64,000 bases of DNA from Candidatus Omnitrophota bacterium (lineage in GTDB: Bacteria; Omnitrophota; Gorgyraeia; Gorgyraeales; Gorgyraeaceae), in the NCBI GenBank assembly GCA_018819285.1, contig JAHJQM010000010.1, forward strand, positions 10,930 through 74,929, written 5' to 3'. The number at the start of each line of letters is the position of its first letter. The first letter of the stretch is position 1. Below, in pieces: positions 52,021 through 64,000 of this stretch. Made by a program: the position numbers and the translations under genes. The notes under the pieces were generated by a model. It had not been told where the DNA came from, made no database searches, and worked only from the letters and a program-made list of their open reading frames with translations.

Positions 52021-52099
52021 TGGGAGTATATTAATTCCTTAACCAATTTTGCCCAGCCGCTATGTGAAGCGACTGGCAAAATTCAGTGGTGACTATACA
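52021..52099 (+). promoter_or_regulatory. 5' leader cassette L1, copy 3 (TTAATTCCTTAACCAATT … imperfect hairpin … AAATTCAGTGGTGACTATACAT + ATG)
   Basis: Seen in sequence. Confidence 0.7.
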
Positions 52100-53129
52100 T
52101 ATGCCAGAATTAAGACGAGATCCTGTAATAGGAAGATGGGTTATAATATCTACTGAGAGGGCTAAAAGGCCGAGCGATTTTAACATCAAGCATGCGGATG
52201 AACCAGAAATGGAATGTCCTTTTTGCGAAGGCCATGAAAAAAAGACGCCTACAGAAATATTTGCAATAAGAAAACCAGGCACAAAAAAAGATACCCCAGG
52301 CTGGAACGTGAGGGTTGTGCCCAGCATAGCTCCGAAATTCAAGATAGAAGGGGAACTTGAGAGGCGCGGAGCTGGGATGTATGATGTTATGAATAATATA
52401 GGCGCCCATGAAGTGCTAATAGAGTCCCCTAAGCACCTTACTGATATATATCAATTATCAGAACTTGAAATACAAGATGTAATTAATGCTTCTATCTATC
52501 GCATCAGCGAACTCGAAAAAGACATTCGTTTTAAATATTGCCTTTTATTTAAAAATCACGGATTGAAAGCAGGAGGCAGTAAGAAAACAAAACACCTCAG
52601 GTCTCAGCTTATCGCAACGCCTGTTACGCCTACAAGAGTCAAAGAGGAACTCAGGGGCTCCATGTTTTATTTCGAATATAAAGAAAGGTGTATTTTCTGC
52701 GACATTATACGCCAGGAAATAGAAACAGGCGCAAGGATCATAATGGAGACAAAAACCATTGTGGCAATTGCGCCTTTTGCTTCAAGGTTTCCTTTTGAGA
52801 TATGGATAATGCCTAAAATTCACAGGGCAGATTTTATGAATATACAGGCTGATGAAATAAAAGATCTGGCAAATGTTTTAAAGACAGTATTTGCTAAACT
52901 TTCAAAGATATTGAACGACCCACCATATAATTATATGCTGCATACAGCTCCTTTCAGGCGGACAAGAAGACCTGGATATTGGCATACGATAGAAGAGGAT
53001 TATCATTGGCATATTGAAGTTATGCCAAGGATAACGCAGGTAGCTGGTTTTGAGTGGGGTTCAGGATTTTACATAAATCCTACTCCTCCGGAAGAAGCGG
53101 CAAAGCATTTACGTGAGGTAATTTTATAA
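52100..53129 (+). CDS. galactose-1-phosphate uridylyltransferase-like protein (HIT superfamily); active-site HxHxQ replaced by H-L-R-S-Q
   Basis: RDPVIGRWVIIS N-terminus and CPFCEGHE zinc motif. Paralog of the next gene; the second (nucleophilic) His is Arg. Confidence 0.7.
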
Positions 53130-54133
53130 TGAGTCAATTGCGAAGAGATCCAATAACAGGAAGATGGGTGGAGATAGCTGTCTCTCATCCAAAAAAATGT
53201 AATGAATTTGACATGAAACCGCAGACTAAGAAAGGCGGGACATGTCCTTTTTGTCCTGGAAACGAAAAGATGACGCCTCCTGAAATAGAGGCAGTTAGAG
53301 GCCTTAAGACAGAGCCTGATACCCCAGGCTGGACAGTCAGAGTTGTCTCTAATAAATTTCCTGCGTTGAAGATAGAAGGAGAGCTGGATAGGCGCGGCAT
53401 AGGTATGTTTGATATGTCAAACGGCATTGGCGCACACGAGGTAATAGTTGAAAATACAGATCATTATAAAAACCTGGCTGACCTGACGCAGGATGAGATA
53501 AGAGATGTGATATCAAAATATAAATCCAGGACCATAGATCTGGAAAATGATGCAAGGTTCAGATATATTTTACTTTTTAAAAATCACGGGGAATCTGCAG
53601 GCGCGTCGCTTGAGCATTCGCATACCCAGCTAGTAGCATTGCCTATTGTGCCTAAGAGGGTTAAGGAAGAATTAAAAGGCGCCCAGAATTATTTTAAATA
53701 CAGAGAGAGATGCGTTTTCTGCGATATGATAGCGCAGGAGCAGCAGGAAAAAGAGAGAATAGTGTTTGAAAATAAACATTTTCTAGCATTTTGCCCTTTC
53801 GTGTCTCGCTTTCCATTCGAGATATGGTTATTGCCAAAATCTCATAGCTCTGAATTTAAATCAATAGATGATTCTGCGATTTACGATATGGCAGGCGCAT
53901 TAAAAGAAGTCCTTGTGAGGTTGAAATTAAGACTTAATGACCCTGCGTATAATTTTATAATTCACACTGCGCCTATTAGAGACGGGGTTTATGAAGAATT
54001 CCATTGGCATCTTGAGATAATGCCCAAATTGACAAATGTAGCTGGTTTTGAATGGGGTTCAGGCCTCTATATAAATCCTTCCTCGCCTGAAATAACTGCT
54101 AAGTGCTTAAGAGAAACGTGCACAGCAAAGTAA
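53129..54133 (+). CDS. galT: galactose-1-phosphate uridylyltransferase-like protein (canonical H-S-H-T-Q active site)
   Basis: RDPITGRWVEIA, CPFCPGNE and SLEHSHTQL motifs; 334 aa. Confidence 0.75.
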   Translation: MSQLRRDPITGRWVEIAVSHPKKCNEFDMKPQTKKGGTCPFCPGNEKMTPPEIEAVRGLKTEPDTPGWTVRVVSNKFPALKIEGELDRRGIGMFDMSNGIGAHEVIVENTDHYKNLADLTQDEIRDVISKYKSRTIDLENDARFRYILLFKNHGESAGASLEHSHTQLVALPIVPKRVKEELKGAQNYFKYRERCVFCDMIAQEQQEKERIVFENKHFLAFCPFVSRFPFEIWLLPKSHSSEFKSIDDSAIYDMAGALKEVLVRLKLRLNDPAYNFIIHTAPIRDGVYEEFHWHLEIMPKLTNVAGFEWGSGLYINPSSPEITAKCLRETCTAK

Positions 54134-54175: not shown

Positions 54176-55288
<1,113 letters not shown>

Positions 55289-56812: not shown

Positions 56813-56944
56813 TAACCACTATATATTGTATAGGAAAAAAAGCTCTCTAAAGTAGGTAGTTATACCTATTTACAGATGCTGGGCTTTCTGGTATCATTTG
56901 GGCTCACGCGATTGGTGTCATACGCCAAAAAAAAGGAGGGGGAA

Positions 56945-57220
56945 ATGGCTATTAAGAAATGTTCGTCAAAAAAGGTGATTTTTAAGATAAGCGCGCCAAC
57001 TGCAAAGGATGTGCGCCTGGCAGGAGATTTTAATTCATGGGATGCATCTAGAGCCAATCTTAAAAAATCTAAAGATGGAGTATGGACAAGAGATTTGACC
57101 CTTAAGTCTGGACGTTATGAGTATAAATATTTAATTGACGGCCAATGGCAGAGAGACCCTTTAAATAATCTTTTCATAGTAAACGCTTTCGGTTCAGAAA
57201 ATTCAGTAATCGAGTTATAA
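56945..57220 (+). CDS. stand-alone CBM48/AMPK-beta-like glycogen-binding-module protein (~91 aa)
   Basis: VIFKISAPTAKDVRLAGDFNSWD…GVW…L…G.YEYKYLIDGQW matches CBM48. ATG at 56945 preceded by AAGGAGGGGG; the ORF opens at 56876. Confidence 0.55.
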   Translation: MAIKKCSSKKVIFKISAPTAKDVRLAGDFNSWDASRANLKKSKDGVWTRDLTLKSGRYEYKYLIDGQWQRDPLNNLFIVNAFGSENSVIEL

Positions 57221-57253
57221 GTTTACACTCTGACATTGTCAAAGTGTAAACTT
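57219..57253 (+). repeat. REP-like palindromic hairpin element, copy G (TTTACAC/GTGTAAA variant)
   Basis: AAGTTTACACTCTGACATTGTCAAAGTGTAAACTT. The TAA of the conserved ATAAGTT terminates the CBM48 gene. Confidence 0.9.
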
Positions 57254-57269
57254 ATTTAGGCGGAGGAGT

Positions 57270-58430
57270 ATGCGGATAGCCATATTTTCATGGGAATCTA
57301 TGCATTCTATTTGCGTGGGCGGGGTGGGCGTGCACGTTACAGAACTTGCATGCGGCCTTGAGCGTAAAGGCAATGAGGTTCATGTTTTTACGCGAGCTGG
57401 TAACTCTGATCAGGCATGGTATGAATGCATTCACGGCGTACATTACCATAGATGCCATTTTAACCAGAGCCCTGATTTTGTAGAAGAAATAAACAATATG
57501 TGCCGTTCTTTTGTGAATGCATTTTTCCAAACAGAGAGCGTCACAGGCCCTTTTGATGTGATTCATAGCCATGACTGGCTGACCTCAAACGCAATGGTCT
57601 GGATAAAACAGGTTAGGCCAAGCAAGGCTGTTCTTACTATACACTCAACTGAATATGGCAGGTGTGGAAACAATTTTCATGACGGCGATTCTGCAAAGAT
57701 CAGAGACCATGAAAGACATGGCACATACTGCGCAGACCATGTAATCAGTGTTTCAAATGCGCTTAAGGCTGAAATTCAGTGGATGTATAATGTGCCTGAC
57801 TGGAAGGCGGACGTAGTATATAATGGAGTTAATTACAAGAATTTTGACGGCTGGATAGATCCTGCGGCAGTCCGGCGTTATTATGGAATAGGGCCTATGG
57901 ATCCAATGGTTCTTTTTGTGGGCAGGATTGTTTATCAAAAAGGCCCGGATCTTTTGATAGAGGCTATTTCGCATATACTTAAATATTACAATAATGCAAA
58001 GTTTGTTTTTGTGGGAGACGGAGAGATGCGCTGGGGCGTGGAGGATAGGGCAAAAGAGATCGGCGTTCATCACGCCACAAGGTTTATAGGCTTTAATAAT
58101 GGATGGAAGCTTTCCGATCTTTACAAGGCAACAGACATTGTGTGCATGCCTTCGAGAAACGAGCCTTTTGGAATAGTCTTATTAGAGGCGTGGAGCGCAG
58201 GGAAGCCTGTGGTGGCCACTTCAAACGGCGGGCCCGGGGAAATAATATGGCATGACATAACAGGTTTAAAAGTTTATCCAAATCCTGAATCAATAGCATG
58301 GGGCGTAGGCACTGCGTTTTCAGATTTTGACCACGCAAGGTGGATGGGCGCTAATGGCAGGATTGCAGTTGAAACTGTTTTTTCCTGGGATGCTGTAGCT
58401 GACCAGGTATTGGACATTTATGGCCGTTAA
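57270..58430 (+). CDS. GT-B glycosyltransferase (family 4, glycogen/alpha-glucan synthase-like)
   Basis: N-terminal …VGGVGVHV…; C-terminal E-x7-E region EPFGIVLLEAWSAGKPVVAT; 386 aa; lies in the alpha-glucan locus. Confidence 0.75.
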   Translation: MRIAIFSWESMHSICVGGVGVHVTELACGLERKGNEVHVFTRAGNSDQAWYECIHGVHYHRCHFNQSPDFVEEINNMCRSFVNAFFQTESVTGPFDVIHSHDWLTSNAMVWIKQVRPSKAVLTIHSTEYGRCGNNFHDGDSAKIRDHERHGTYCADHVISVSNALKAEIQWMYNVPDWKADVVYNGVNYKNFDGWIDPAAVRRYYGIGPMDPMVLFVGRIVYQKGPDLLIEAISHILKYYNNAKFVFVGDGEMRWGVEDRAKEIGVHHATRFIGFNNGWKLSDLYKATDIVCMPSRNEPFGIVLLEAWSAGKPVVATSNGGPGEIIWHDITGLKVYPNPESIAWGVGTAFSDFDHARWMGANGRIAVETVFSWDAVADQVLDIYGR

Positions 58431-59670
58431 AAAACCAAAAATTAAAAAAAGAAATTCTATAGAACGCGTTTATAAAGATGGGAGAGAGGCTATTATAAAG
58501 GCTATGAAGAAGAAGCCGCTCCTACAAAAGAAAACTCCGCGAGTAACGGCTACTGTTTCCAGTGTGGTCAAGCCCGCTGTAATTCTAGAAAAAAAAGTAC
58601 AATCAACGCCCATAACAATAAATGAGTACGAACTCCCTTCTTATAACAATACAACAAGGATTACTTTGATAGCAAAAGACCCTTTCTGGGTATATGCTTA
58701 CTGGGAAATTGCCGAGAGTTCAATAGAAGACGTAAAGCGCCAGTTAGGCGGCAACTTGGACGGCACAAGGTTTATTGTCCGTATGTATGATGTGACATAT
58801 AAAGATTTTAACGGGTTTAACGCCAATCATTGGTTTGATATAGAAGTAGGCCGGTATTCAAATAACTGGTATATAAGCTTATGGAATGACAATGTATCTT
58901 ATTGTGCAGATTTAGGCATAGTCCATGCTTCCGGAAGATTTTTCCCGATAGCCAGGTCTAATTTTGTGCATACGCCTCGGTCCAATTCATCTAACAGGTT
59001 TGAAGAGATATGGATGGACCTTGCTCAGGAGCAGGAGCTCTCAGGTGCGCCGACGCCTTGCAATAAAATTAAAGGAGCTGCCTATCCTAAGACAGGTCAA
59101 AGGGTTCAATACGATGCAGCAGGCAGGTTCAGCTACTCTAGCGTATCTAAAAAAAGAAAGCTTTACCTTAGTGAAGCAGATTTAAGAGCGTATTACAGTA
59201 AATTTTCTCCTTTATTGAGAAAACGGTTGTTCTTGCGTATTTCCAGAAAAAAAATATACAAGTATTTATATTCCAAGATGTCAGGCGCAGAATGGCAGGA
59301 CTTGCTTTATTTTAGAAGGCTACATGAGGCAAAATTTGGCAGAAAGATTATGATTGGCGCCTCTGAATTTACATATCTGGGCGGAAGCGAAAATCTTCAA
59401 GGCGGGGCAAGCGAATTTGTCCAGCCGGATAAAAAACGCAAATTCTTTTTTGAAATAGGCGCAGAGCTTATTGTTTATGGCCGCACAGAACCTGACGCAG
59501 AGGTAATGCTTGGGGATAAAAAAGTGGATCTCAAGCCTGACGGAACTTTCAGCATGAGGTTTGCGCTTCCTGATGGGAAAATCCCGTTACCTTTTATAGC
59601 CACTTCAAAAGATAAAATAGATATTAGGAAAATTACAACCCAAGTAGAACGCAACACATCCTATGCATAA
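58420..59670 (+). CDS. DUF4912-domain protein
   Basis: …DPFWVYAYWEI…RMYDVT…WYISLW… central region typical of DUF4912, which is commonly encoded next to GH57 genes; 416 aa. Confidence 0.55.
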   Translation: MAVKKPKIKKRNSIERVYKDGREAIIKAMKKKPLLQKKTPRVTATVSSVVKPAVILEKKVQSTPITINEYELPSYNNTTRITLIAKDPFWVYAYWEIAESSIEDVKRQLGGNLDGTRFIVRMYDVTYKDFNGFNANHWFDIEVGRYSNNWYISLWNDNVSYCADLGIVHASGRFFPIARSNFVHTPRSNSSNRFEEIWMDLAQEQELSGAPTPCNKIKGAAYPKTGQRVQYDAAGRFSYSSVSKKRKLYLSEADLRAYYSKFSPLLRKRLFLRISRKKIYKYLYSKMSGAEWQDLLYFRRLHEAKFGRKIMIGASEFTYLGGSENLQGGASEFVQPDKKRKFFFEIGAELIVYGRTEPDAEVMLGDKKVDLKPDGTFSMRFALPDGKIPLPFIATSKDKIDIRKITTQVERNTSYA

Positions 59671-61288
59671 AGGTTATCTATGTTTAGTTCTTCATGCACA
59701 CCTTCCATTTGTCAGACATCCTGAAGAGGAGAATTTTCTTGAGGAGAACTGGCTCTACGAAGCCATCACAGAAACTTATATACCTTTTATACAAGTTTTT
59801 GAAAAATTAATCGAAGACCATGTGGATTTCCGCATAACAATGTCCCTGACGCCCACCTTGGCGTCCATGCTTCAGGACGAACTCCTTCAAAACAGATATA
59901 TAAGGCATATTGATAAATTAATAGAACTTGCTGACAAGGAGGTCCAGCGCACAGGCTATGACCCTAAATTTCACGGCCTTGCCCTGATGTATTACAGGAA
60001 GTTTGTGGAGACAAGAGAGATATTTATAGATAAATGCAAAAAAGACCTGGTATCCGCATTTAAAAGATTCCAGGATCTTGGATGTGTTGAGATACTTGCT
60101 TCCTGCGCTACTCACGGATTTCTTCCTATATTAGGTGTAAATCCAACTGATGCAGATGCCCAGGTAAAAGTTGGCGTTGAACATTACAGAAAGACATTCG
60201 GCAGGGACCCTGTTGGGTTCTGGCTTCCTGAATGTGGATATGCCCCAGGCATTGACAATTTTTTAGCAGACTCTGGGATTAAATATTTCTTTGTAGATTC
60301 GCATGGAATTGTAAACGCAGATCCAACGCCAAAGTATAGCGTATACGCGCCTTTATACTGCCCTTCAGGAGTTGCCGCATTCGGGAGAGACTGGGAATCT
60401 TCCAAGCAGGTCTGGAGCTCAAAAGAAGGTTATCCAGGAGACCCTGATTACAGGGAATACTATAAGGATATAGGCCATGAATTGGAGTATGAGTATATAA
60501 AACCGTATATTCATCCAATTGGATTCAGGATAAATACAGGGCTTAAATACTGGAGGATAACAGGAGGTACTGATCATAAGGAGCCGTATGTGCCTGAATG
60601 GGCAAAGGAAAAAGCAGCTACGCACGCAGGGAACTTTATGTTTAACCGCGAAAAACAGATAGAGCATATTGCGTATCATATGGACAGAAAGCCTATGATC
60701 ATTTCTCCTTATGACGCAGAATTATTCGGGCACTGGTGGTTTGAAGGCCCGATGTGGATTGATTTTTTGATACGTAAAATTGCGTATGACCAAAAAACAG
60801 TAAAGCTTGCCACGCCGTCAGATTATCTAAGAGAATACCCTGTTAACCAGATGTCGGTTCCGTCAACATCTACTTGGGGTTATAAAGGTTATAATGAGGT
60901 TTGGCTGGAAGGAAGCAACGACTGGATTTACAAACATCTGCATGTTGCAGGCGAGAGGATGAAAGAATTGGCTGAAAGATTTTTCGATTGCATGGAAAAG
61001 GACAAAAATGACCTGGAGAGACGCGCATTGAATCAGGCTGCGAGAGAGCTTCTCCTTGCGCAGGCAAGCGATTGGCCATTTATAATGAAAACAGGCACGA
61101 TGGTAGAATATGCTAATAAAAGGGTGAAGCTTCACATAAATAGATTTACACATATTTACAAGGATATGCTGAACGGCTCTATTGATAAAGAATGGCTTAA
61201 AGAGGTTGAATCAAGGGATAATATTTTTTCTGATATGGATTGTGCTAAATATTATATTCAAAACAAAATAAGTAAAGGAGTGGTATGA
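59663..61288 (+). CDS. glycoside hydrolase family 57 1,4-alpha-glucan branching enzyme
   Basis: LVLHAHLPFVRHPE N-terminus with downstream catalytic Glu/Asp regions (WLPECGY, SPYDAELFGHWWFEG); 541 aa. Confidence 0.8.
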   Translation: MHKGYLCLVLHAHLPFVRHPEEENFLEENWLYEAITETYIPFIQVFEKLIEDHVDFRITMSLTPTLASMLQDELLQNRYIRHIDKLIELADKEVQRTGYDPKFHGLALMYYRKFVETREIFIDKCKKDLVSAFKRFQDLGCVEILASCATHGFLPILGVNPTDADAQVKVGVEHYRKTFGRDPVGFWLPECGYAPGIDNFLADSGIKYFFVDSHGIVNADPTPKYSVYAPLYCPSGVAAFGRDWESSKQVWSSKEGYPGDPDYREYYKDIGHELEYEYIKPYIHPIGFRINTGLKYWRITGGTDHKEPYVPEWAKEKAATHAGNFMFNREKQIEHIAYHMDRKPMIISPYDAELFGHWWFEGPMWIDFLIRKIAYDQKTVKLATPSDYLREYPVNQMSVPSTSTWGYKGYNEVWLEGSNDWIYKHLHVAGERMKELAERFFDCMEKDKNDLERRALNQAARELLLAQASDWPFIMKTGTMVEYANKRVKLHINRFTHIYKDMLNGSIDKEWLKEVESRDNIFSDMDCAKYYIQNKISKGVV

Positions 61289-62607
61289 AAATAAATTCAT
61301 ATTTTGGCATAGCGCTTCATATGCATCAACCAGTAATTCCAGCAGGCGGCTCTGACATCAGGACAGCGAAACTGATTTCTAATTTGCAATATATGATGGA
61401 TCATCAGGATATCGGAGACAATCACAATGCGTCTGTATTTTTGAATTGTTATTCAAGGATAGCTGATTTTGTAAGAGAACTTTCGGGCGAAGGTAAAAAT
61501 CCAAGGATCATGCTGGATTATTCGGGAAATCTTCTTTGGGGCCTTAAGGATATGGGTGAAGAAAGAGTCTTGGATAATCTCAAGCTCGTTACCTGCGATA
61601 AAAAATATTCCGGGTATGTGGAATGGCTCGGGACAATGTTGTCGCATTCCGTGGTCAGTTCTACTCCTGTCCCGGACATAAGACTTCATATAAAAGAATG
61701 GCAGGGTTATTTTGCGTCAATATTCGGACAAAAAGCCCTTAAAAAGGTCAAAGGGTTTTCTAGCCCTGAGATGCATCTTCCGATCCATCCTGATGTGTGT
61801 TTTGAATACATAAAAGCTTTGAAAGAATGCGGATATAAATGGCTCATGGTCCAGGAGCATACGATAGAAAACCTGGACGGCACGTCTGTAAGAAGGCCGC
61901 ATTTTCCACATAAGTTAGTCGCTAAAAATTCTCTTGGAGAAAAGGCAGAGATAACAGTTATTATAAAGACTCAAGGGTCTGATAATAAACTCATTGGCCA
62001 GATGCAGCCATATTACGAAGCCAAGACTTTAGGACATGAGATATACTGCGGTGTTGAACTTCCACCTTTTGTAGCTCAGATAGGGGATGGAGAAAATGGT
62101 GGAGTAATGATGAATGAATTTCCAGAAGCGTACAAGAAGGCTTTTCGAGAAACAGGCTGTGAAGGCACAGCCGGCATGAATGGAACAGAGTACCTTGAAT
62201 TTGTAAAACAGGCTGGTTTGGACGAAAAGTCATTTATGCCTGTACAGCCTATTTCTCAGAGCAAGATCTGGGAATTTTTAAAGGAATATTCTCATGGCGC
62301 AGCTGACAAGGCTATTGAAAAAGTGAAACAAAAATATCCAGGCTTCAGTTTAGAAAAGGCATCATGGACGAACGATAAAGATTGGGTAAAGGGTTACGAA
62401 GATATAATGGATCCCATAATCCAGCTTAGCGCGGCATTTCATAAGAAATTTGACAATAAAAATATAGATAAAGCAAGCCCTGCTTATAAAAAAGCGCTTC
62501 TTTATTTATTATTATCTCAGACAAGTTGCTTTCGTTATTGGGGAACAGGCGTATGGACAGATTATGCAAAGGAGATCTGCCGCAGGGGTATGGAAGCGCT
62601 AAAATAA
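61285..62607 (+). CDS. GH57-like protein (HxHQP motif)
   Basis: IALHMHQP N-terminal motif; 440 aa; family assignment is tentative. Confidence 0.5.
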   Translation: MKINSYFGIALHMHQPVIPAGGSDIRTAKLISNLQYMMDHQDIGDNHNASVFLNCYSRIADFVRELSGEGKNPRIMLDYSGNLLWGLKDMGEERVLDNLKLVTCDKKYSGYVEWLGTMLSHSVVSSTPVPDIRLHIKEWQGYFASIFGQKALKKVKGFSSPEMHLPIHPDVCFEYIKALKECGYKWLMVQEHTIENLDGTSVRRPHFPHKLVAKNSLGEKAEITVIIKTQGSDNKLIGQMQPYYEAKTLGHEIYCGVELPPFVAQIGDGENGGVMMNEFPEAYKKAFRETGCEGTAGMNGTEYLEFVKQAGLDEKSFMPVQPISQSKIWEFLKEYSHGAADKAIEKVKQKYPGFSLEKASWTNDKDWVKGYEDIMDPIIQLSAAFHKKFDNKNIDKASPAYKKALLYLLLSQTSCFRYWGTGVWTDYAKEICRRGMEALK

Positions 62608-62636
62608 ATGTAACAATATTATTTCATACTTTTGCT

Positions 62637-62941
62637 CTGCTCAGGCCAGCAGTTTGAGAGGCCTTTTTGACACGAGCGGGCACGGTGTCTGTTGAGCCAG
62701 GTGGGGCCATTCGGCACTGAATCGTTTCGCCGTCCGCTACGGTTTATGGTTCGTTCTTCTGTCGACTATCGTATTGTCAACCGATCAGAACTCACCATAA
62801 ATCCTTGCGGACTTTTGCCGAAACGATTCTAATGTGCCTCAGACCCCGCCTGGCTCAACAGACGAGCGAGTGTCAAAACGGAGCAAAATTTTTACGCTGG
62901 GAAAATTTTGCGTCCTCGCAAACTGCTGGTCTGGGCAGAGA
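62637..62941 (+). ncRNA. ~305-nt GC-rich nested inverted-repeat element (candidate structured ncRNA or MITE-like insertion)
   Basis: Outer arms CTCTGCTCAGGCCAGCAGTTTGAGAGG (62637-62663) and CCTCGCAAACTGCTGGTCTGGGCAGAG (62915-62941). Further nested reverse-complement blocks lie inside. No ORF of note, and GC content is clearly above flanking DNA. Confidence 0.45.
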
Positions 62942-63032
62942 TCAGGAACATAGCCATTAAAATAGGTCTTAAACAGACTGATTGACAAGGATTTTATTAT
63001 CTGATATAGTCTATAAAACACAAGGAGGAAAG

Positions 63033-63224
63033 ATGATAAAGAAACTGAAGAAAGTCTTATCGCTGGATAATAATGAAAATCGTGTCAGCCGTGAAGAATT
63101 TATGCAGCTTGTCCAGAAAAAGGCATACGAAATTTATGAAAAAAGAGGGTGTCAATCTGGCAATGACCTGGAAGATTGGCTTAATGCTGAAAGGTTAGTG
63201 AAAGAAGACCTTGGAGTAAAATGA
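63033..63224 (+). CDS. DUF2934-family small protein
   Basis: …AYEIYEKRG…GNDLEDWLNAE… motif; strong AAGGAGG Shine-Dalgarno before the ATG at 63033; ATGA overlap with the next gene. Confidence 0.5.
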   Translation: MIKKLKKVLSLDNNENRVSREEFMQLVQKKAYEIYEKRGCQSGNDLEDWLNAERLVKEDLGVK

Positions 63225-64000
63225 TATACTGGGCGCCGCTTCTACATTTTTATCAGCCTCCGACGCAGTCTCATGATGTCCTTGCAAAAATCTGCGAAGA
63301 ATCCTACAGGCCATTAGTAAAAGTATTTAAAGAGCATCCCGAATCCAGGATTACTATAAATATGTGCGGGGTGCTTACTGAAATGCTGGGTATCCATGGT
63401 TATGGGGATGTCGTAACGGGTCTCAGGGAGCTTGGAAAAAGCGGCCAGGTTGAGTTTGTTGAATCTGCAAAATTCCACGCTATACTGCCTTTAATACCAA
63501 AGAAAGAAGCCAGGAGGCAGATAGAATTAAACAGATTAACAAACCTGTCTTTTTTTAAAAATAGCTATAAGCCAAAAGGATTTTTTCTGCCAGAGATGTG
63601 CTACTCCGATGAAACAGCCTCTATCGTAAGAGATATGGGTTATGAATGGGTTATAGTGAGCGGTATTGCCTGCCAAGGAAAATGGCCTATGGATTACGTG
63701 CCAACTTTTAAACTTTCTTCAGGCGCCATAAAGGCATTTTTCAGAGACGATATAGTCAGCAACATGATCAGTTTTAAAAACCTGGACGCCAATGGATTTG
63801 TCTCTAACGTTAAAGGCTTGGGCAAGGGGAAAGAAGATGTATATATAATTACAGCAATGGATGCGGAAACATTTGGCCACCATATAAGAGATTGGGAAAA
63901 GATATTTCTTGGAGCTGTTTACGAAATTATAGAGGATTCAGAAGAGATAAAAGTAATTAATATCAGCGACCTTCTAAAGATATTTCCTGCAGTAAAGACA
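63221..64000 (+). CDS. glycoside hydrolase family 57 protein, N-terminal part (continues beyond the window)
   Basis: LLHFYQPP N-terminal motif and …MDAETFGHH…; the ORF is open to the window end. Confidence 0.7.
   Translation, partial: MIYWAPLLHFYQPPTQSHDVLAKICEESYRPLVKVFKEHPESRITINMCGVLTEMLGIHGYGDVVTGLRELGKSGQVEFVESAKFHAILPLIPKKEARRQIELNRLTNLSFFKNSYKPKGFFLPEMCYSDETASIVRDMGYEWVIVSGIACQGKWPMDYVPTFKLSSGAIKAFFRDDIVSNMISFKNLDANGFVSNVKGLGKGKEDVYIITAMDAETFGHHIRDWEKIFLGAVYEIIEDSEEIKVINISDLLKIFPAVKT

Follow-up and report, generated by a model that had tools for sequence, protein, structure and literature searches.

Two adjacent genes for proteins of the galactose-1-phosphate uridylyltransferase (GalT) fold are located in a 64,000-nucleotide (nt) stretch of DNA from Candidatus Omnitrophota bacterium (GCA_018819285.1, contig JAHJQM010000010.1). 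This whole stretch is referred to as the window, all positions are given in its numbering, and all features described lie on the + strand. On the evidence of sequence comparisons, the pair probably encodes an obligate heterodimeric nucleotidyltransferase of the GalT/ADP-glucose phosphorylase fold with one working composite active site. The upstream gene, copy 1 (52101..53129), encodes a GalT-fold protein of 342 amino acids (aa), in which the own-chain (cis) pocket is degenerate and the partner-directed (trans) elements are intact. The downstream gene, copy 2 (53129..54133), encodes the putative catalytic subunit of 334 aa, which has a complete cis pocket and a degenerate N-terminal arm. The corresponding members of tandem pairs in other genomes are termed P1 (upstream, copy-1-type) and P2 (downstream, copy-2-type).

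In the proposed arrangement, one chain would contribute the cis part of a site, namely the zinc-held HxHxQ loop, the N-K-F strand, Asn152, Gly158 and Ser160. The trans part would come from the other chain and consist of the N-terminal arm, with its two arginines for phosphate binding, and of the C-terminal hexose loop F-E-W-G. Copy 2 would give an intact cis part and copy 1 an intact arm and loop, and in a copy1:copy2 dimer one site (copy 2 cis with copy 1 trans) would be complete and the other (copy 1 cis with copy 2 trans) degenerate in both its parts. Since copy 2 lacks the partner-directed Arg pair and copy 1 lacks the cis pocket, neither homodimer should be fully competent, and the two proteins would depend on each other. 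The reaction would be of the ping-pong type, as in the closest solved relative (ADP-glucose + phosphate <-> glucose-1-phosphate + ADP), with an adenylyl intermediate on His165 of copy 2.

Reciprocal residue losses in the two copies

Alignments made with HMMER and MAFFT placed K-H165-L-R167-S-Q169 of copy 1 opposite S-H184-S-H186-S-Q of the Arabidopsis ADP-glucose phosphorylase At5g18200 and P-H164-P-H166-G-Q of E. coli GalT, the reference sequence of the latter having been checked as identical to 1HXQ. From this alignment onto solved structures, copy 1 has Arg167, and copy 2 has His165, at the position of the nucleophilic histidine. The replacement, which had been reported in a first-pass annotation of this DNA made by eye from the letters, was thereby confirmed. 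In copy 1 the motif H165-L-R167-S-Q169 (52593..52607) has kept the zinc-ligand histidine and has an AGG arginine codon (52599-52601) for the nucleophile. In copy 2 the motif is the canonical H163-S-H165-T-Q167 (53615..53629; His165 codon 53621-53623), and by the presence of HxHxQ only copy 2 qualifies as a catalytic member.

Both copies have retained the zinc-binding CPFC motif (C39, C42) that had been noted in them, together with the other zinc ligands. The metal sites were found to be invariant in P1 and P2 alike. They comprise C39, C42, H112 and H165 (H163 in copy 2), a Cys2His2 zinc site which includes the first histidine of the HxH motif, and C197, C200, H241 and H302.

The HxHxQ loop of copy 2 is canonical, as had been described earlier, but its N-terminal arm is not: there, His20 and Lys23 (His20 to Lys23, 53186..53197) sit at the positions of a family-invariant Arg pair. 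In copy 1 this phosphate-binding pair is present (Arg20 to Arg23, 52158..52169) and corresponds to Arg28/Arg31 of E. coli GalT, Arg48/Arg51 of human GALT and R41/R44 of At5g18200. The nucleoside/ribose-binding motif N-K-F (N77-D78-F79 in E. coli) is intact in copy 2 (N75-K76-F77, 53351..53359) and replaced by S75-I76-A77 in copy 1 (52323..52331). Copy 1 also carries the loop which, in GalT enzymes, enters the active site of the partner and holds the hexose (A315-G-F-E-W-G-S-G-F-Y324, 53043..53072), and F317, E318 and Y324 of this loop were invariant or nearly so across the P1 sequences.

The two members were compared column by column in 60 pairs from two collections and 71 single-copy sequences of the family, using the numbering of the window copies. 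At the position of the nucleophile (167 in P1, 165 in P2), Arg was found in 55 P1 sequences, His in four and Lys in one, whereas all 58 P2 sequences and 69 of the 71 single-copy sequences had His. N75 was replaced by Ser in 55/60 P1 sequences but was present in 59/59 P2 and 68/71 single-copy sequences, and K76 was mostly Ile in P1 but Lys in 58/59 and 68/71, respectively. Position 77 was Ala, Ser or Lys in P1, compared with Phe or Tyr in P2 (59/59) and in single-copy sequences (70/71). Similarly, S160 was Gly in 49/60 P1 sequences, Ser in all 58 P2 sequences and Ser or Thr in 69/71 single-copy sequences.

The pattern was reversed in the arm. R20 was present in 58/59 P1 and 70/71 single-copy sequences, but in only six P2 sequences. 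R23 was present in 59/59 P1 and 66/71 single-copy sequences, whereas in P2 Arg was not among the six commonest residues at this position (2/29 in the genome-only set). The P2 replacements were variable, with H, N, K and Q found at position 20 and K, G, L and T at position 23.

Among about 120 columns that were at least 88% conserved in the single-copy sequences, P1 had lost N75, K76, A79, A159, L161 and H167, and V105 conservatively. Seven of ten P1 losses fell into cis-pocket segments (Fisher p = 3e-5) and none into the N-terminal arm. The P2 losses (I16, R20 and R23) were all located in the arm, with none in the cis segments.

Four of the 60 pairs (L004, L028, L095 and L099) have HxHxQ in both copies, a situation that the first-pass annotation had named as one that would refute its reading. 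The P1 members of these pairs still carry S75, the altered loop and, at position 76, a residue other than Lys, and R23 is absent from the P2 members. The conclusion therefore stands, and the His-to-Arg change is to be seen as one of several changes and not as the decisive one.

Unusual residues were also observed in three single-copy sequences. Two of them, L121:1375-2433 (HSQSQ) and L146:2905-4065 (QPQSQ), have Gln at the position of the nucleophile and no partner within the available sequence, and L146 also lacks the zinc-ligand His and Asn152. The third, L135:1297-2334, has kept HAHSQ, has Met and His at the positions of the arm arginines and N-I-S for N-K-F, and no partner was visible on its 4.8-kb contig.

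Both At5g18200 and the class I GalTs form homodimers in which the active sites are situated at the subunit boundary, each pocket being completed by the neighbouring chain. In human GALT, the site for hexose-1-phosphate consists of Lys334-Gln346 from one chain and of Gln188 plus Asn173 from its partner, and the equivalents of the hexose loop in both the E. coli and the human enzyme are supplied by the second subunit. The arginines Arg28/Arg31 of E. coli (human Arg48/Arg51) touch the substrate, Arg48 coming from the chain opposite to Gln188. Molecular dynamics simulations of human GALT showed that glucose-1-phosphate is held mainly by Arg48 and Arg51, and revealed stable inter-subunit contacts R48A-F99B and R51B-D98A. 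According to these contacts, the Arg pair of one chain packs on N-D-F of the other, which here would be N75-K76-F77. The importance of the pair is illustrated by R51L and R51Q, GALT variants from patients with classical galactosaemia.

As the arginines of human GALT act on the partner chain, all losses in the Omnitrophota pair would fall into one of the two copy1:copy2 sites, leaving the other complete. In this step we infer the cis/trans geometry by transfer from the E. coli and human GalTs across 27-40% identity.

Pairing, selection and natural fusions

Homologue scans of one genome per species yielded 80 loci, and scans of metagenomes yielded 80 further loci. The 120 closest homologues of copy 1 (60-92% identity) came mostly from Candidatus Omnitrophota metagenome-assembled genomes. 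The conservation of the His-to-Arg change, a check that had been proposed with the first-pass annotation, was evident in these sequences, since H-x-R-S-Q was found in nearly all of them and in 55 of the 60 upstream pair members. Two family genes were present at 60 loci, always on the same strand, with P1 upstream and P2 immediately downstream, and an HxHxQ partner on the same strand was found directly 3' of each H-x-R gene wherever the downstream DNA was readable. In all other phyla sampled (among them Nitrospirota, Acidobacteriota, Desulfobacterota, Zixibacteria, Elusimicrobia, Margulisiibacteriota and Auribacterota) the family was represented by a single copy with HxHxQ.

For 56 scored pairs, the distance from the P1 stop to the P2 start fell into the range from -17 to +9 nt in roughly three quarters, with a mode of -1. 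In the window, the reported overlap of the two genes proved to be a single base, which is common to the TAA of copy 1 (53127-53129) and the ATG of copy 2 (53129-53131) in TAATG (53127-53131). Together with a GAGG resembling a ribosome-binding site (53115-53118), located within the end of copy 1 and 10 nt upstream, it forms an element at 53115..53131. The stop/start overlap would give roughly equal synthesis of both subunits. The ATG at 52101 was taken as the start of copy 1 in preference to a GTG at 52086 because the orthologues begin with MPELR. A promoter and terminator scan gave no informative signal in this AT-rich DNA.

The gene order around the pair is conserved as priA-(def)-fmt-P1-P2-gap, and gap was located downstream of the pair in 50 of 59 loci. 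In the window, gap (glyceraldehyde-3-phosphate dehydrogenase) is found at 54278..55288. The Omnitrophota-type order priA-fmt-P1-P2-gap was also observed in seven assemblies titled 'uncultured Planctomycetia/Planctomycetales' (L005, L007, L013, L017, L021, L023 and L029), the taxonomic labels of which may be imprecise. Two divergent pairs were detected in metagenomes (L114 and L122), with H-Q-R-I/M-Q and Y-K-F in P1, and with Arg20 kept and Arg23 lost in P2. They may show the arrangement at a stage where degeneration is less advanced.

The ratio of non-synonymous to synonymous substitution rates (dN/dS) was 0.04-0.09 for P1 and 0.04-0.10 for P2, indicating strong purifying selection on both. 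The loss of the catalytic His and of several binding residues would also be expected of a decaying, functionless duplicate, but P1 has the same low dN/dS as P2, its reading frame is intact in at least 60 genomes and metagenomes, and its arm, loop and metal sites are invariant. Copy 1 is therefore not decaying, the dN/dS values having ruled out a pseudogene, and practically no weight is left for this explanation. Catalytic loss, purifying selection and a constantly neighbouring active paralogue, which are the sequence hallmarks of a pseudoenzyme partner, were all observed for copy 1.

Pairwise distances of P1 and P2 at 32 loci were strongly correlated (r = 0.91), and a partial correlation of 0.76 was retained after controlling for the flanking gap and fmt. 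All other partial correlations were 0.11 or less. These values, taken with the complementary losses and the natural fusions described below, lead us to infer that copy 1 and copy 2 associate physically. The earlier proposal of a heterodimer of an active and an inactive subunit is thus strongly supported as regards the heterodimer, but copy 2 is itself degenerate, having lost the arm arginines.

An exhaustive profile-free search identified a natural fusion of the two genes, P0121 (599 aa), and a follow-up search added P0289 and P0290. The fusion genes (L161:5001-6800, L162:6001-7791 and L163:3001-4800) come from three assemblies, and the encoded proteins of about 599 aa are 52-56% identical to each other. 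In each, a short linker joins a P1-like unit to the P2-like unit that follows it. All three fusions have an S1-domain gene and tyrS upstream of them; at L161 and L162, pgm is found further upstream and gap-pgk-tpi downstream, while the third contig stops just beyond the fusion gene.

The P1 part retains, in all three fusions, the arm (MSELRK..RWV..AVERAKRP), in which R20 and R23 are invariant, the half-domain at the C terminus and the likewise invariant loop AGFEWGTGxYINP. What it no longer has is CPFC with its zinc site, the strand NKF, GAHE and the entire HxH/R-Q loop. The P2 part begins at CPFC and therefore has no arm; NKFPAL, GxHEVIIE and FKNxGxxAGASLEHxHTQL are invariant in it, and its own F-E-W loop is variable. 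The fusion lineage acts as a natural deletion analysis, in which the retained parts match exactly those of the proposed single composite site. It also indicates that any role of the P1 pocket would be dispensable. A different kind of duplication was seen in P0156 (871 aa), in which two complete tandem GalT-like units, both with HxHxQ, follow a low-complexity N-terminus, unlike the Omnitrophota pair.

Alternatively, the two proteins could form separate homodimers, copy 2 being a normal enzyme and copy 1 either a binding protein or an enzyme with new chemistry, such as a direct phosphorolysis in which Arg167 would stabilise the transition state. The strong conservation of copy 1, its fixed Arg and its retention of both metal sites, Asn152 and Gln169 would suit such a function. 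However, copy 1 also lacks N-K-F and Ser160, and copy 2 lacks the Arg pair that is kept by single-copy enzymes and whose loss causes human disease. Moreover, the complementary losses map to a single site, and the genes invariably lie side by side and have, in one lineage, become fused, the pocket of copy 1 having disappeared. Separate homodimers are thus very unlikely. A changed chemistry of copy 1 that would proceed without a covalent intermediate, as had been suggested initially, is likewise disfavoured by the loss of N-K-F and Ser160, by the absence of Gln169 from some orthologues and by the fusions without the pocket.

The heterodimer with one composite site thus remains the preferred explanation, and several points have to be set against it. 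The cis/trans assignment is borrowed from GalTs at 27% identity and not from At5g18200 itself. The AlphaFold2 monomer of copy 1 was of modest quality (predicted local distance difference test score, pLDDT, 68), and its low-confidence stretches were the arm and those loops which, in homologues, reach over to the partner; the support is entirely computational. Correlated distances may also be found between paralogues of one fold that have no physical contact. In unfused pairs, the F-E-W loop of P2 itself is still conserved. In addition, the replacements in P1 are themselves conserved (Ser75 and Arg167 at 92% each), with a new basic residue at position 161, and the pocket may accordingly retain some structural or ligand-binding function.

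These conserved replacements would be accounted for if, within the proposed heterodimer, the remodelled pocket of copy 1 served as a regulatory site for a phosphorylated metabolite or an anion, much like the non-catalytic subunits of ADP-glucose pyrophosphorylase; this would add to the composite-site proposal and not exclude it. Ser75 (55/60), Arg167 (55/60) and Gly160 (49/60) are fixed in P1, the extra basic residue at 161 is Arg or Lys in 43/64 sequences, and Asn152 and Gln169 are kept. P2 positions 20 and 23, which face the P1 pocket, vary freely, unlike the pocket. The fusion lineage, however, lacks the entire pocket including its zinc site and its gene is still constrained; the Arg is replaced by His in four pairs and by Lys in one, and Gln169 is changed to F, N, H or R in single orthologues. 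The conserved Arg could also merely stabilise an empty pocket or the interface. On balance, a regulatory role is considered unlikely, although it is the best of the explanations that depart from or extend the plain composite site.

The pair is old. P1 has the long loop GYWxTIxxDYHWH, as in one single-copy subfamily, and P2 the short loop, as in the other; P1 and P2 are 49% identical to each other, and either is 51-53% identical to single-copy enzymes. A recent tandem duplication was considered and rejected, as P1 and P2 carry the loops of different subfamilies and are closer to single-copy enzymes than to each other. In a neighbor-joining tree, P1 and P2 each formed a clade, with mirrored branching. 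Against this, the bootstrap values for exact monophyly were low (7/100 for P1 and 30/100 for P2), with a mean overlap of 0.94-0.96.

Family placement, substrate and gene neighbourhood

Copy 1 and copy 2 are 51% identical across 340 aa (E 3e-130). Both matched PF01087 (GalP_UDP_transf) and PF02744 (GalP_UDP_tr_C) above the gathering scores, and by their two HIT-like half-domains they belong to the GalT branch of the HIT superfamily. Foldseek gave 2H39, 1Z84, 6K5Z and 1HXP as top matches, the first of which is an ADP-glucose phosphorylase. The closest solved and characterised relative of both copies was the ADP-glucose phosphorylase At5g18200 (1Z84; E 1e-70 for copy 1 and 1e-76 for copy 2), aligned over residues 3-330 at 40% identity. 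E. coli GalT was far more distant, at 27% identity (E 1e-19 for copy 1 and 1e-22 for copy 2).

Many orthologues are annotated in public databases as galactose-1-phosphate uridylyltransferase, and the complex could accordingly be the Leloir enzyme acting on UDP-glucose and galactose-1-phosphate. Copy 2 scored above the cut-off of the NCBIfam model TIGR00209 (galT; 121.1 bits, cut-off 102.1), and copy 1 was slightly under it (100.7). The strict GalT model PRK11720 (cut-off 448), however, was missed widely by copy 1 (114.7) and copy 2 (145.9), and both are far nearer to At5g18200 than to E. coli GalT. Furthermore, neither galK nor galE was found among the annotated neighbours in the window, and relatives of the pair adjoin or are fused to GT5 glycogen synthase and GH57 genes. 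A Leloir function is therefore rather improbable.

An alpha-glucan locus of six genes lies downstream of the pair (56876..64000). It encodes a CBM48 protein (56876-57220), a GT4/GT5-like glucan synthase (57270-58430), a DUF4912 protein (58420-59670), a GH57 branching enzyme (59663-61288), a GH57-like protein (61285-62607) and a further GH57 protein (63191 to the window end). The glucan synthase is short (386 aa) and GT4-like with a partial GT5 match, compared with the GT5 GlgA of about 490 aa beside single-copy members elsewhere.

A link between the family and such genes was evident at loci from other phyla. A GT5 glycogen/starch synthase was present in the flanks of 28 of the 71 single-copy loci, usually directly adjacent, and GH57 and DUF4912 genes were frequent neighbours. 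In the long-loop single-copy subfamily, GlgA, GH57 or DUF4912 genes were found at about 20 of 23 loci. In the Omnitrophota metagenome-assembled genome L058, a single-copy member terminates an operon resembling that of the window (CBM48, GT, DUF4912, GH57, GH57-like).

Gene fusions point in the same direction. In P0148 (814 aa), a GT5 synthase (KVGGLGDV) is fused to a complete GalT-like unit with HPHSQ and both arm arginines; its cluster has 19 members, some labelled Coprothermobacterota. In P0160 (875 aa), P0234 (858 aa) and the fragment P0165, found on several independent contigs, a GH57 domain is fused to a complete GalT-like unit.

Since neighbourhoods and fusions tie the family to alpha-glucan metabolism, ADP-glucose is the most likely substrate, and the pair probably acts on it in glycogen metabolism. 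The first-pass annotation had proposed that the pair supplies a nucleoside diphosphate (NDP)-glucose to the glucan locus. The link to glucans has been borne out by the gene neighbourhoods and fusions in other phyla, while the pair may either supply or remove NDP-glucose; the GlgA fusions argue for supply of ADP-glucose. The accompanying remark that no glgC is visible near the glucan locus holds for the window, in which no such nucleotidyltransferase was detected in 11 large open reading frames, including nine of glgC size, nor among the neighbours of the pair and the glucan locus. Two considerations weigh on the other side: the window pair adjoins gap and lies outside the glucan operon, and, to judge from the equilibrium of glycogen phosphorylase, the formation of ADP-glucose out of glucose-1-phosphate and ADP is unfavourable when phosphate is at its usual level.

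In a wider and distinctly speculative proposal, the GalT-like family in all its forms (single-copy, heterodimer, and GlgA or GH57 fusions) would act as a widespread source of ADP-glucose that needs no ATP (glucose-1-phosphate + ADP -> ADP-glucose + Pi). It would feed glycogen synthase, recycle the ADP released by it and replace or supplement GlgC in many anaerobic or uncultured phyla, and allosteric control of this route in the Omnitrophota heterodimer would be exerted through the remodelled pocket of copy 1 and the two basic residues newly present in it.

Two further observations concern the glucan genes. The DUF4912 gene, which in the window is flanked by the genes for the glucan synthase and the GH57 branching enzyme, was found directly upstream of a GH57 branching enzyme in L025, L040, L058 and L128, which represent several phyla; this suggests that DUF4912 is an unrecognised component of GH57-type glycogen operons. 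In Zixibacteria-type genomes (L066:4616-5911, also L054, L057 and L069), the GalT-like gene and GlgA are directly preceded by a gene for a 432-aa protein with NTP_transf_4 and hexapeptide repeats, and both pyrophosphorylase- and phosphorylase-type routes involving NDP-glucose may thus be present in these genomes.

Significance and comparison with known systems

The GalT-like family is large, with about 2,000 clusters at E <= 1e-30, and poorly studied in bacteria; its ties to glycogen genes make the bacterial role of ADP-glucose phosphorylase a directly testable question. Annotations of copy 1 orthologues vary among galactose-1-phosphate uridylyltransferase, DUF4931 protein and HIT-domain protein. 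In metabolic reconstructions of Omnitrophota, neither gene of the pair should be counted as a stand-alone enzyme. The solved GalT and ADP-glucose phosphorylase structures returned by searches of the PDB all contained a single protein species, and a literature search retrieved no description of a GalT-branch protein that is heteromeric or a pseudoenzyme, or of the Omnitrophota pair. If the proposed heterodimer is correct, the pair would be a clean natural case in which the residues lost from the two chains belong to the same one of two interface sites, and the fusion lineage would be the next evolutionary step, in which the unused parts have been deleted.

Among known systems, At5g18200 (1Z84, 2H39) resembles the pair most closely, with about 40% identity, the same length and HIT fold of two half-domains, and both Cys/His metal sites. 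Its HxHxQ loop matches copy 2 and its arm arginines match copy 1. Unlike the pair, it is a homodimer with two equal sites, whereas here two diverged genes would each provide half of the residues. The E. coli and human enzymes share the fold and the interface active site, with the Arg pair and the hexose loop from the second chain and His and Gln from the first. They differ in being homodimers that act on UDP-hexoses, at about 27% identity, and the pair has no Leloir neighbours.

ADP-glucose pyrophosphorylase (the large and small subunits of plants, and GlgC/GlgD of Firmicutes) offers a parallel, as one paralogue is non-catalytic and works only in the hetero-oligomer. It is thus also a duplicated ADP-glucose enzyme with a non-catalytic paralogue. 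Its fold is unrelated, however, its sites are not composite and, unlike copy 2, its catalytic subunit is not degenerate.

Heterodimeric ABC exporters (TM287/288 and TAP1/2) have one consensus and one degenerate nucleotide site, and the degenerate site still binds ATP. As proposed for the pair, two composite sites lie at a pseudo-symmetric interface and the non-canonical residues of both chains converge on one of them, although fold and chemistry are unrelated. In trypanosomatids, impaired or dead paralogous subunits combine into active enzymes with interface sites, as in deoxyhypusine synthase and in S-adenosylmethionine decarboxylase (AdoMetDC) with its prozyme. These heteromers differ from the Omnitrophota pair in being eukaryotic, in belonging to unrelated families and in not being encoded in an operon.

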